Shown piece after piece: positions 20,939 through 23,900 of a DNA stretch of 64,000 nucleotides; position 1 is the first letter of the stretch, and each line of letters starts with the position of its first letter. Both the position numbers and the translations under genes were made by a program. The notes below the pieces were generated by a model. That model had not been told where the DNA came from, ran no database searches, and saw nothing but the letters and a program-made list of their open reading frames with translations. The stretch spans positions 44,665,552 through 44,729,551 of the forward strand of contig NC_086382.1 in the NCBI RefSeq assembly GCF_036588685.1. The letters run 5' to 3'. Source of the DNA: Mytilus trossulus (Eukaryota).

Positions 20939-23900
20939 CTGAAAAGGAAATTGTTCAAATTTGATATCAATTTATATCTGTGACATGTCAAAATTAATCT
21001 CTGTACTATTGTGAATTTTAGTAGATTTCCTTCTAGGAATATGATTAAAACTTGATTCATTATACAAAATTTTACTTTTTATACTTCAAATCTGTAAGTT
21101 ATTCTTTATTTAATGATATCCATACAAAAAACAATGAATTACAATGTATAGTGAAACGATAAGTTGTCTCAGTTGCCCATAGCTGTTAAGAAAGTTAGCC
21201 ACTATTCAGATGCTCCAAACTAGTAGAATTTTTTACGACCTAGTAATTTTGATTAGGAACTTAAGGAAAATGTCAAAATATTGGTCTTCAGACTAGTGGT
21301 TGGACAGGTTTTAGAGAAAACTGCTGTAACATACCAAACTAAATGGAAAATGTATTCATGGGACACTTGCATGTGACGTATGTAGAGATATATCTCAAGA
21401 ACTGTAAAAGTGAAGCTATCCAAATTTGTACTTGATCTAAGTTTATTGGTGATAAGCATTAAGGATAGGTTTCATAACATTCAGTTGAGGCAAACTTAAC
21501 TTTGAGAATGGAAACAAAAAAATCAGCATTTTTTTCATTTGAAAAGGGGCATAACTCTACACAATAAAAGTGACAACAACCAAATCATAACTTGACATGT
21601 GTTTTGTGGTAATAAACATTGTTTATAAGTTTCATAAAATTTTCTTGTTGCAAACAAAAGAGAACAAAAACATATTGTCTGGATCTATGAGAACTAAAAA
21701 CTTATAAAAAATCAATAACAACCTATAAATAGATCATATTCTTTCAGATACAAGTATCAATTAGGACACATCCAACTGATTTAGTGAAGAGATGATTGTA
21801 TAACAATGTCTACCCTAACTATAAATAAGTTACTTACTTGAGCCTTGGGTCCTGCTATTGACATGGTTTCTATTGTTTTTATTCCTAATGTCTCAACCAT
21901 AGACTTGAATTTCTTTACCTAATAATGTGCAGAAATATTTACAATTATTTAGGATTTAGGAATGTGTACAATATTTTTTTTGACACAAAACTTTCAAAAA
22001 AAAAAAAAAAGAAAAAAAAAAAGGCATATCAGTTTCTTTATTTATCTTTCTGAAAACAAACTCAGATAAAATTTCTTTCATAAAAATACAAATTTGATAA
22101 TATAAATGCGTAATGAATGTTTAATGCTGTGTTGTTTGAGAAATTATTGAATAAAAAAAAATCTTTTATCATTTTTACAATGAGCAAGATATTATTGGTT
22201 AATAATGATCTAAAAGATATTATCTCAAGTCCTCATTAGACTAGGTTGTTTTATATAACCAGTATAATATAAACAATATTTACCTCAATATCTGCTCTTC
22301 CTTTTTCTAAATCCAATTCTATTCTGTTAAGTTCTCTCTGATAGGATAGTTCTTGTGCTCTCAACTGTAAATTTTAAGGAAGAATTAATAACAATCAATT
22401 ACATAAGGCTGAAAACAACTGAGTACTACGAATAAAGTGAAGAAAGATTAATTTTAATTGAATGTTCAAAGACTTTAATTCCATTTAAAAAGGTACAATA
22501 GATAAAAATAAAAATAAATTGTATATGTAATTTCTTATTATAGATAGGCATGCAAACATCTTCAGGTCCCCATAAAGTCAGGACAAGTATGTCACATTCA
22601 ATTTTGATATATTGCTGCACTAGCAGTGTATGATATTCATGTCAAGAGCAATCAATATTAACCTGAACAAACCGAAGGACAGACAGAAGGACGGACACAC
22701 AGACCAGAAAAACATAATGCCCCTCTACTATCGTAGGTGGGGCATAAAAATATTTATAAAGTATTTAGTTACTGGTGTACTGGAAGTATTAAGACAAAAT
22801 ATGGTTGACTATTTTCAACAATTCAAGTCCAATCACTCTGGAATGACAAAAATGAAATCATCATAAAGTATGACTCTGAGCCTATCATCAATTGTTATAT
22901 CACGTAAAAAGTGAAAAAAATACTTAACATTTTATAAATTCTTTATAGTTAGTTCATTTTTTCAAAAATAATTTATACACTCACCAAGCCCTGAGTTTCT
23001 AGTTTGGCCATGTGTTCAATTTCCTCTGCTTCAGCCTTTAATTTAGCAGCTGTAACGAAAATTTTAATCATAATCATTGCATGGAATAATGTTAAAAGCT
23101 TTACTTCAATTCAGACAATTTTAATGAGATGTATATTGTATTTTAATATAAACAAGCAAATGTCTTTTTATGGTCACCATCTAAACTATGGGTAGCAATA
23201 TCCTGGTTGGACAAATGATAATGTGTCATGTTGTACGGTTTGTAGAGTTGTTTCACAGAGCAGCAGATAGTTGGGAAGGATCAATTCAATTAATATTTTT
23301 GAGGTTGTGATTTTAAACCCTGTGTATGTGGCAGGTCATTGGAATCCAATCTAAATTGACAAAGATTGCCTGTTTTAGTGTCAAAGGTTGTAATTCTCTC
23401 CAGATTCCTCAACACATAAAAACTGTCTGCCAAAATAGAGCTAAGATTACTGGAAGTCGTGTCTAACACCAACAATTAAATAATCATATCATTTTTTTAT
23501 TTATTTTTTAATGTGTAAAACCATTAAATAAAATTATTATTATACTGAACTTCTGTAACTCCAAATAACATTATACAGATAAAGGAATCAAACAATCCAA
23601 TTAAATTTAAGGGCTTTTAGTGGAACCTTTGATGTATGCTTGAATTATAAAACTTCAATACTTATAGCATATGTTTTCTCAGCTTTTATATTAAGCTTGT
23701 GTTTGACTTACATTCAATTTCACTTTCACACTCTATTAGCATTCTCTCAGCCTGAGCCTGTGACTCAGCTTTGGTTTGACTTACATTCTATTTCACTTTC
23801 ACACTCTATTAGCATTCTCTCAGCTTGAGCTTGTGACTCGGCTTTAGCTTGACCAGTAGATTCCACAGCCGCAGTGATAGCTTGTAATTCTAATAACTTT

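Follow-up and report, generated by a model that had tools for sequence, protein, structure and literature searches.

What does a second copy of an exon end and its splice donor do inside the intron of a conserved gene: does it add protein sequence, or is it a splice site that the gene tolerates? The question is raised by the major vault protein gene (MVP) in the window, by which we mean the whole 64,000-nucleotide stretch of Mytilus trossulus DNA analysed here. A first-pass annotation had described the 3' end of MVP exon 22 and its GTAAGT donor as duplicated immediately downstream in the intron, and both TRF and a repeat search recover this duplication. We consider it most likely that the extra copy is a tolerated decoy splice site, neutral to mildly deleterious, and not a new coding segment. 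With a probability of roughly 0.78, we read the locus as a junction minisatellite (VNTR) in MVP, a near-neutral, non-coding array of decoy donors that arose by slippage at microhomology and whose first donor is the productive one.

The 73-bp repeat at the exon 22 donor

The MVP exons were located by tblastn with a human MVP sequence, which served purely as a probe. They are collinear on the minus strand from 43266 to 20843; the exons 3' of exon 22 were positioned by eye using splice signals. The gene has sequence for the Vault repeat, the MVP shoulder and the cap helix, all of it collinear with that of known MVPs, and the top database proteins for its reconstructed C-terminal half carry PF01505, PF17794-6 and PF11978. 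One database match is "Major vault protein, Mytilus galloprovincialis" (VDI74248.1 / A0A8B6H617), to whose residues 475-614 the protein of exons 21-24 is identical at 140 of 140 positions. In the annotated M. galloprovincialis MVP, the exon junction reads ...ECESEIE|SAKLK..., as produced by the first donor.

Two M. galloprovincialis models, P0060 and P0179 (VDI74248.1 and VDI74247.1), depart from the window's clean exons 24-26: both end ...ELTEWKFRKRRADIVLFNIILH, and the conserved C-terminus (VKKFK...TPINLF...) is missing. These odd C-termini probably reflect a problem of the reference annotation or assembly rather than biology.

The features of the exon 22 region, in positions of the window, are as follows.

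23785..24011, minus strand: MVP exon 22, 227 nt, phase 2 in and phase 1 out
23840..23853, minus strand: exonic 14-mer GTCAAGCTAAAGCC, coding for GQAKA, putative substrate of slippage or unequal exchange
23767..23839, minus strand: repeat copy 1, 73 nt, the 59-nt end of exon 22 plus the 14-nt start of intron 22
23779..23784, minus strand: authentic 5' splice site GTAAGT, the sole donor that keeps the frame
23765..23767, minus strand: in-frame TGA, arising across the junction of copies 1 and 2
23694..23766, minus strand: repeat copy 2, 73 nt, entirely intronic, 68/73 identical to copy 1
23706..23711, minus strand: duplicate (decoy) donor GTAAGT, 73 nt downstream of the authentic site
23621..23693, minus strand: possible older, decayed third copy (weak), roughly 60% identical, with indels and no remaining donor GT
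23050..23784, minus strand: intron 22, 735 nt, which holds the extra copy
22985..23049, minus strand: exon 23, 65 nt, beginning (T)CT GCT AAA
22364..22284, minus strand: exon 24, placed by eye
about 21917..21837, minus strand: exon 25, placed by eye
near 20825, minus strand: TAG end of the last exon, placed by eye

TRF reports a tandem array at 23694-23853 with a period of 73, 2.2 copies, 90% matches and a score of 264. In the repeat search, the two 73-nt copies (23767-23839 and 23694-23766) lie in register and are 93% identical (68/73), far above the 80% that the first-pass annotation had set as the limit below which its claim would fall; such similarity cannot be chance. In each unit, 59 nt from the end of exon 22 are followed by the initial 14 nt of intron 22. 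The earlier description, which had the last ~70 nt of the exon repeated together with its donor in units of 75 bp, was right about the exon end and the donor; it overstated the exonic part and the period, the unit being 73 nt. The duplicate GTAAGT that it reported is also present, at coordinates that were off by one base. In gene sense, the two donors stand at 23784..23779 and 23711..23706, both in the context GAAT|GTAAGTCAAAC, and are identical from -4 to +11; exon 22 itself ends ...GAA ATA GAA T|GTAAGTCAAAC, with exit phase 1. Head-to-tail copies of a unit within 10-100 bp, here with a period of 73 and 90-93% identity, are those of a minisatellite or VNTR.

The 14 nt that lie 5' of copy 1 (23853..23840, GTCAAGCTAAAGCC) resemble the 3' end of the unit (GTCAAACACAAGCT), which is why TRF counts 2.2 copies. 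On the other side, the candidate third copy (23621..23693) reaches a score of 16 under lenient scoring, against 9.2 +/- 1.8 in shuffles (p ~0.0025, post hoc); under stricter scoring it is not significant, and the M. galloprovincialis locus described below is largely without a counterpart.

The end of exon 22 (23785-23810, minus strand) is also repetitive in itself: a direct repeat, ATAGAGTGT...ATAGAATGT, has its copies 18 nt apart (ATAGARTGT twice), and the second of them overlaps the donor GT. Because of this repeat, the exon end is intrinsically prone to slippage. Internal repetition is what one expects of sequence that codes for a coiled coil.

Reading frame and splice options

The first-pass annotation proposed that the copy could be included in frame or act as a cassette pseudo-exon. 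With a unit of 73 nt (73 mod 3 = 1), splicing at donor 2 would add 73 nt and lose the frame: reading on from exon 22 gives TGT AAG TCA AAC CAA AGC TGA, that is, CKSNQS and a stop after six codons. This TGA (23767..23765) would precede four further exon junctions. A stop upstream of later exon junctions makes a transcript a typical substrate of nonsense-mediated decay (NMD). Transcripts from downstream donors would contain nonsense codons and presumably be removed by NMD.

We then tried each of the ten AG dinucleotides between donors 1 and 2 as the acceptor of a pseudo-exon. Only two of them give inserts divisible by three, of 57 and 21 nt. The 57-nt insert, from the AG at 23770-23769 to donor 2, is open, but it requires a 16-nt intron, gtaagtcaaaccaaag, that is without a pyrimidine tract and smaller than any known metazoan intron. 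The 21-nt insert is divisible by three, yet its first codon is a stop.

These results bear on the idea that the copy extends the cap-helix region of MVP in frame, as an alternative 5' splice site or a cassette pseudo-exon. The perfect duplicate donor, the AGs ahead of the copy and the 19-residue repeat that the 57-nt insert would encode are what such a reading would call for. However, the period is 73 and not 75, so that donor 2 offers no stop-free addition divisible by three, and none of the ten AGs combines a usable acceptor with a feasible upstream intron, the options other than the 57-nt one being frameshifted or beginning with a stop. The idea is refuted for this allele by its sequence, and we regard its probability as close to nil. 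Nor does either donor resemble a recursive splice site of the form (Y)nNAG|GTAAGT, as both are preceded by GAAT and not by a pyrimidine tract and AG.

Searches of protein databases for transcript-derived ORFs of Mytilus MVP found none, and the 56-aa read-through ORF of the window has no database record. From the frame, the conservation and the gene annotation we infer, in part, that productive MVP mRNA would come only from the first, intron-distal donor.

The array in related genomes and its neighbour at exon 21

To follow the repeat beyond the window, we compared it with the M. galloprovincialis reference (GCA_900618805.1, UYJE01009533.1:110492-133958; L008), a locus obtained via the longer isoform P0179. 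The alignable introns of the two genomes are ~78-95% identical; with this and the coding dS given below, the window belongs to a Mytilus genome distinct from that reference. The M. galloprovincialis locus shares the 73-bp unit with the window, down to its phase and its terminal junction (...GTAAGTCAAACACAAGCT|TAATATAAAAGC), and has 6.2 copies with six intact GTAAGTCAA donors where the window has 2.2. GTAAGT is kept in all eight 73-bp copies of the two genomes together. The copies differ between the genomes in a consistent manner: all those in the window read GCTCA(A/G)GCTGAG, while all those in M. galloprovincialis read GCACAGGCTGAG or GTACAGGCTGAG, the exon copy included in each case. As read from the two sequences, such genome-specific variants across all copies indicate that the copies evolve in concert or are turned over by unequal exchange.

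A related bivalve, represented by two sequencing runs (L002 and L003), has a tandem repeat of its own at the exon 22 donor. Its exon 22 is 79.6% identical to that of the window at the nucleotide level, and no intron can be aligned. The array (1193-1463 in L002, 718-989 in L003) has a period of 86 with 2.4 copies, followed by a period of 67 with 2.2 copies; the 19 nt by which the two units differ in length fit a deletion between the two ATAGAATGT repeats. Its copy donors are weakened, with GTTAGT, GTTAGT and GTTTGT against GTATGT at the exon. The unit boundaries differ from those of the 73-bp unit, and the array was derived separately. In four other relatives (L001, L004-L007), the end of exon 22 is single-copy.

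Mussel genomes are highly heterozygous and rich in repeats. An assembly artefact, in which a haplotype was falsely duplicated or collapsed, is thus worth considering for the window, but 5 mismatches in 73 positions set the two copies apart, the unit, its phase and its terminal junction recur with another copy number in the independent assembly GCA_900618805.1, and the relative's own array is present in two separate runs. We consider an artefact very improbable.

ORF read-throughs from ~15 further invertebrate lineages contain no echo of the exon, and the phase-1 intron after ...IE is conserved among them. [quoted passage not shown] Tandem duplication of coding sequence that bears splice sites is a recognised route to introns (PMC2891723). 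In MVP, however, the duplication straddles the boundary of this pre-existing intron, the junction reads AAT|GT with no AG|GT proto-splice site, and only 59 of the 227 exon nucleotides were copied, with no acceptor. Neither form of the proposal seems credible here.

The preceding exon of the same gene carries a second array of this kind.

25728..25628, minus strand: MVP exon 21
24398..25671, minus strand: 47-bp array, 27 copies of a unit made of the final 40 nt of exon 21 and its GTAAGT donor

The first-pass annotation had called the two duplications the same kind of event, and the composition of the 47-bp unit, an exon end with its donor, bears this out. Here, too, reading on from the exon leads to an immediate stop (ACA AAG TAA). 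The unit is bounded by TAAGT, in the exon as tTAAGTaaa and at the donor as gTAAGTc. GTAAGT is kept in 21 of the 27 copies, the rest having GTCAGT (three copies), GGTAGT, GTAGGT and GTGAGT, and in 11 of the 27 a T-to-A change creates a second motif, GTAAGC (CAGTAAGCT). Among the relatives, the 47-bp unit is single-copy in L001, L002 and L005-L007.

The M. galloprovincialis reference has 2.1 copies of the 47-bp unit against 27 in the window. Both arrays are present in both genomes and are therefore older than their split. The 73-bp array had been placed at an earlier stage than its neighbour, an order that does not hold in M. galloprovincialis, with its 6.2 copies of the 73-bp unit against 2.1 of the 47-bp unit; on these counts, the copy numbers do no more than fluctuate in two old arrays. 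At the orthologous sites, between two genomes at a dS of 0.157, copy number differs as in a VNTR (2.2 versus 6.2 at exon 22, 27 versus 2.1 at exon 21), and these are therefore junction minisatellites and not the result of a one-off duplication.

Between the window and M. galloprovincialis, MVP has a dS of 0.157, a dN of 0.0095 and an omega of 0.06 over 671 codons; a cruder estimate of dN/dS, 0.15, is an upper bound. MVP is under strong purifying selection while carrying both arrays, and its first donors must therefore be productively used.

How surprising two such arrays in one gene are can be put in rough arithmetic. Given six arrays with a period of at least 20 in a 22.4-kb gene with 26 donors, the chance that two or more units contain a donor is ~0.1, and adding the separate event in L002 lowers it to roughly 0.01. 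This suggests, without proving it, a local predisposition.

Other repeats occur in the window. An apparent echo near 30840/30160, considered as a further junction echo, was rejected as read-through of a pyrimidine tract. A 31/62-bp minisatellite at 28983-29225 (minus strand; ~8 copies, 74-80% identity) lies within ~20 nt of a donor (exon end 29250) and was rejected as a junction repeat, being without exon sequence; its M. galloprovincialis homologue appears longer (~15106-15917 of L008). In an MVP intron at 39212-40361, 135/261-bp and 161-bp tandem repeats adjoin each other, and the consensus of the latter includes GGGCCC. We presume that they resemble the ~160-bp satellite or MITE-core repeats of bivalves (Mytilus ApaI type); a literature search on the likeness of the 161-bp repeat to the ApaI satellite gave no confirmation. 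Outside MVP, a 263-bp unit is repeated 2.7 times at 11098-11797 with 99% identity, a sign that this tandem duplication is very young.

Origin, donor choice and known systems

We then propose a model for the origin and maintenance of the exon 22 array. The donor is bracketed by two 14-mers 73 nt apart, GTCAAGCTAAAGCY (GTCAAGCTAAAGCC) in the exon and GTCAAACACAAGCT in the intron (+5..+18), which match at 10 of 14 positions in the window and at 11 of 14 in M. galloprovincialis. In the latter genome, the first inter-copy junction (copy 1/copy 2) is exactly the exon-type 14-mer. The array may have arisen by slipped-strand mispairing or unequal exchange between these imperfect 14-bp direct repeats, and present-day sequence retains what would be the expected footprint of slippage. 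As the comparison shows, it has persisted from before the split of the two genomes, with shifting copy number and with concerted evolution that takes in the exon copy. As for its consequence, any downstream donor would add 73n nt and meet the TGA at once, the transcript presumably being lost to NMD.

A difficulty for first-donor use comes from mammalian splicing, in which identical strong 5' splice sites at least 45 nt apart lead to almost exclusive use of the intron-proximal, downstream site (PMC3413131). If this rule were valid in mussels, splicing would be expected to favour the decoy and MVP output to break down, at odds with an omega of 0.06. Either the intron-proximal rule fails for internal exons or in mussels, or the gene tolerates a sizeable share of unproductive transcripts, which are then cleared.

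One possible elaboration is that unproductive splicing is regulated, with the copy number of the decoys setting the share of MVP pre-mRNA sent to NMD and thus acting as a heritable dial on expression. The agreement of decoys and authentic site over positions -4 to +11, the retention of GTAAGT in eight of eight copies, the intron-proximal preference documented for duplicated strong sites (PMC3413131) and the association of tandem-repeat length with splicing variation in humans (PMC10078293) are all compatible with such a dial. Selection on the decoys, however, has left no mark: 13 of the 82 six-column windows across the eight 73-bp copies are as invariant as the donor, so that it is no more conserved than the rest of the unit, and across the 27 units of the 47-bp array, variability is ~4% for the donor hexamer (hand count) against a unit average of 3.8%, with no excess conservation. 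Moreover, the copy donors of L002 and L003 are degraded, and changes of copy number are common to any minisatellite. We hold a regulatory dial to be unlikely.

It is tempting to speculate further, as a long shot, on what arrays of perfect decoys that vary in copy number (2 to 27 at exon 21, 2 to 6 at exon 22) would mean. The mussel spliceosome may reliably pick the first of many identical donors, which would make MVP an exception, found in nature, to the intron-proximal rule, or the arrays may be a heritable dial on MVP output via unproductive splicing and NMD; multi-copy alleles such as that of M. galloprovincialis could even add in-frame 19-residue repeats to the cap helix, by splicing from donor 1 to the AG before a later copy. 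If first-donor choice is true, it could expose how the spliceosome selects among donors.

Taken alone, the probably near-neutral decoy array at exon 22 is an ordinary small tandem duplication. More interesting is its pairing with the neighbouring exon, by which the exon end and its donor recur as a variable array at two consecutive MVP exons, in 27 and 2 copies in the window versus 2 and 6 in M. galloprovincialis. The paired arrays form a natural experiment on donor choice among many identical, close 5' splice sites and on the tolerance of unproductive splicing. They are also a warning for annotators of repeat-rich mollusc genomes, as intronic echoes of exon ends can mislead gene predictors.

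The exon 22 array is a fresh example among the known cases in which tandem repeats meet splice sites. Tandem arrays that carry splice sites are known (Zhuo et al. 2007, as cited in PMC3488318). As far as that citing account describes them, they resemble the MVP array in that head-to-tail units each bring a 5' splice site, so that expansion multiplies the candidate donors in a gene. They appear to differ in that a conserved coding exon has itself supplied the MVP unit, from its 3' end and its constitutive donor, and in that the downstream MVP donors are all non-productive, meeting an immediate stop, with alternative transcripts being putative here.

The small tandem duplications with splice sites of PMC2891723 likewise duplicate coding sequence together with a GT donor, whereas the MVP copy extends an existing intron, creates no new one and has a unit that is not divisible by three. 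With the human spl-TRs (PMC10078293), the MVP array shares a length-polymorphic tandem repeat beside a splice site that could modulate site choice. In contrast to them, the MVP repeat contains the splice site itself and not RBP motifs, and its link to splicing is putative.

An experimental parallel in design is the set of duplicated 5' splice sites from the Eperon laboratory (PMC3413131), which likewise place two identical strong donors in cis with one 3' splice site; with its donors 73 nt apart, MVP is nature's counterpart of the C174C-type constructs. There, the intron-proximal site takes nearly all of the splicing once the sites are at least 45 nt apart, whereas the conservation of MVP implies productive use of the intron-distal site, at an internal exon and in a mollusc.
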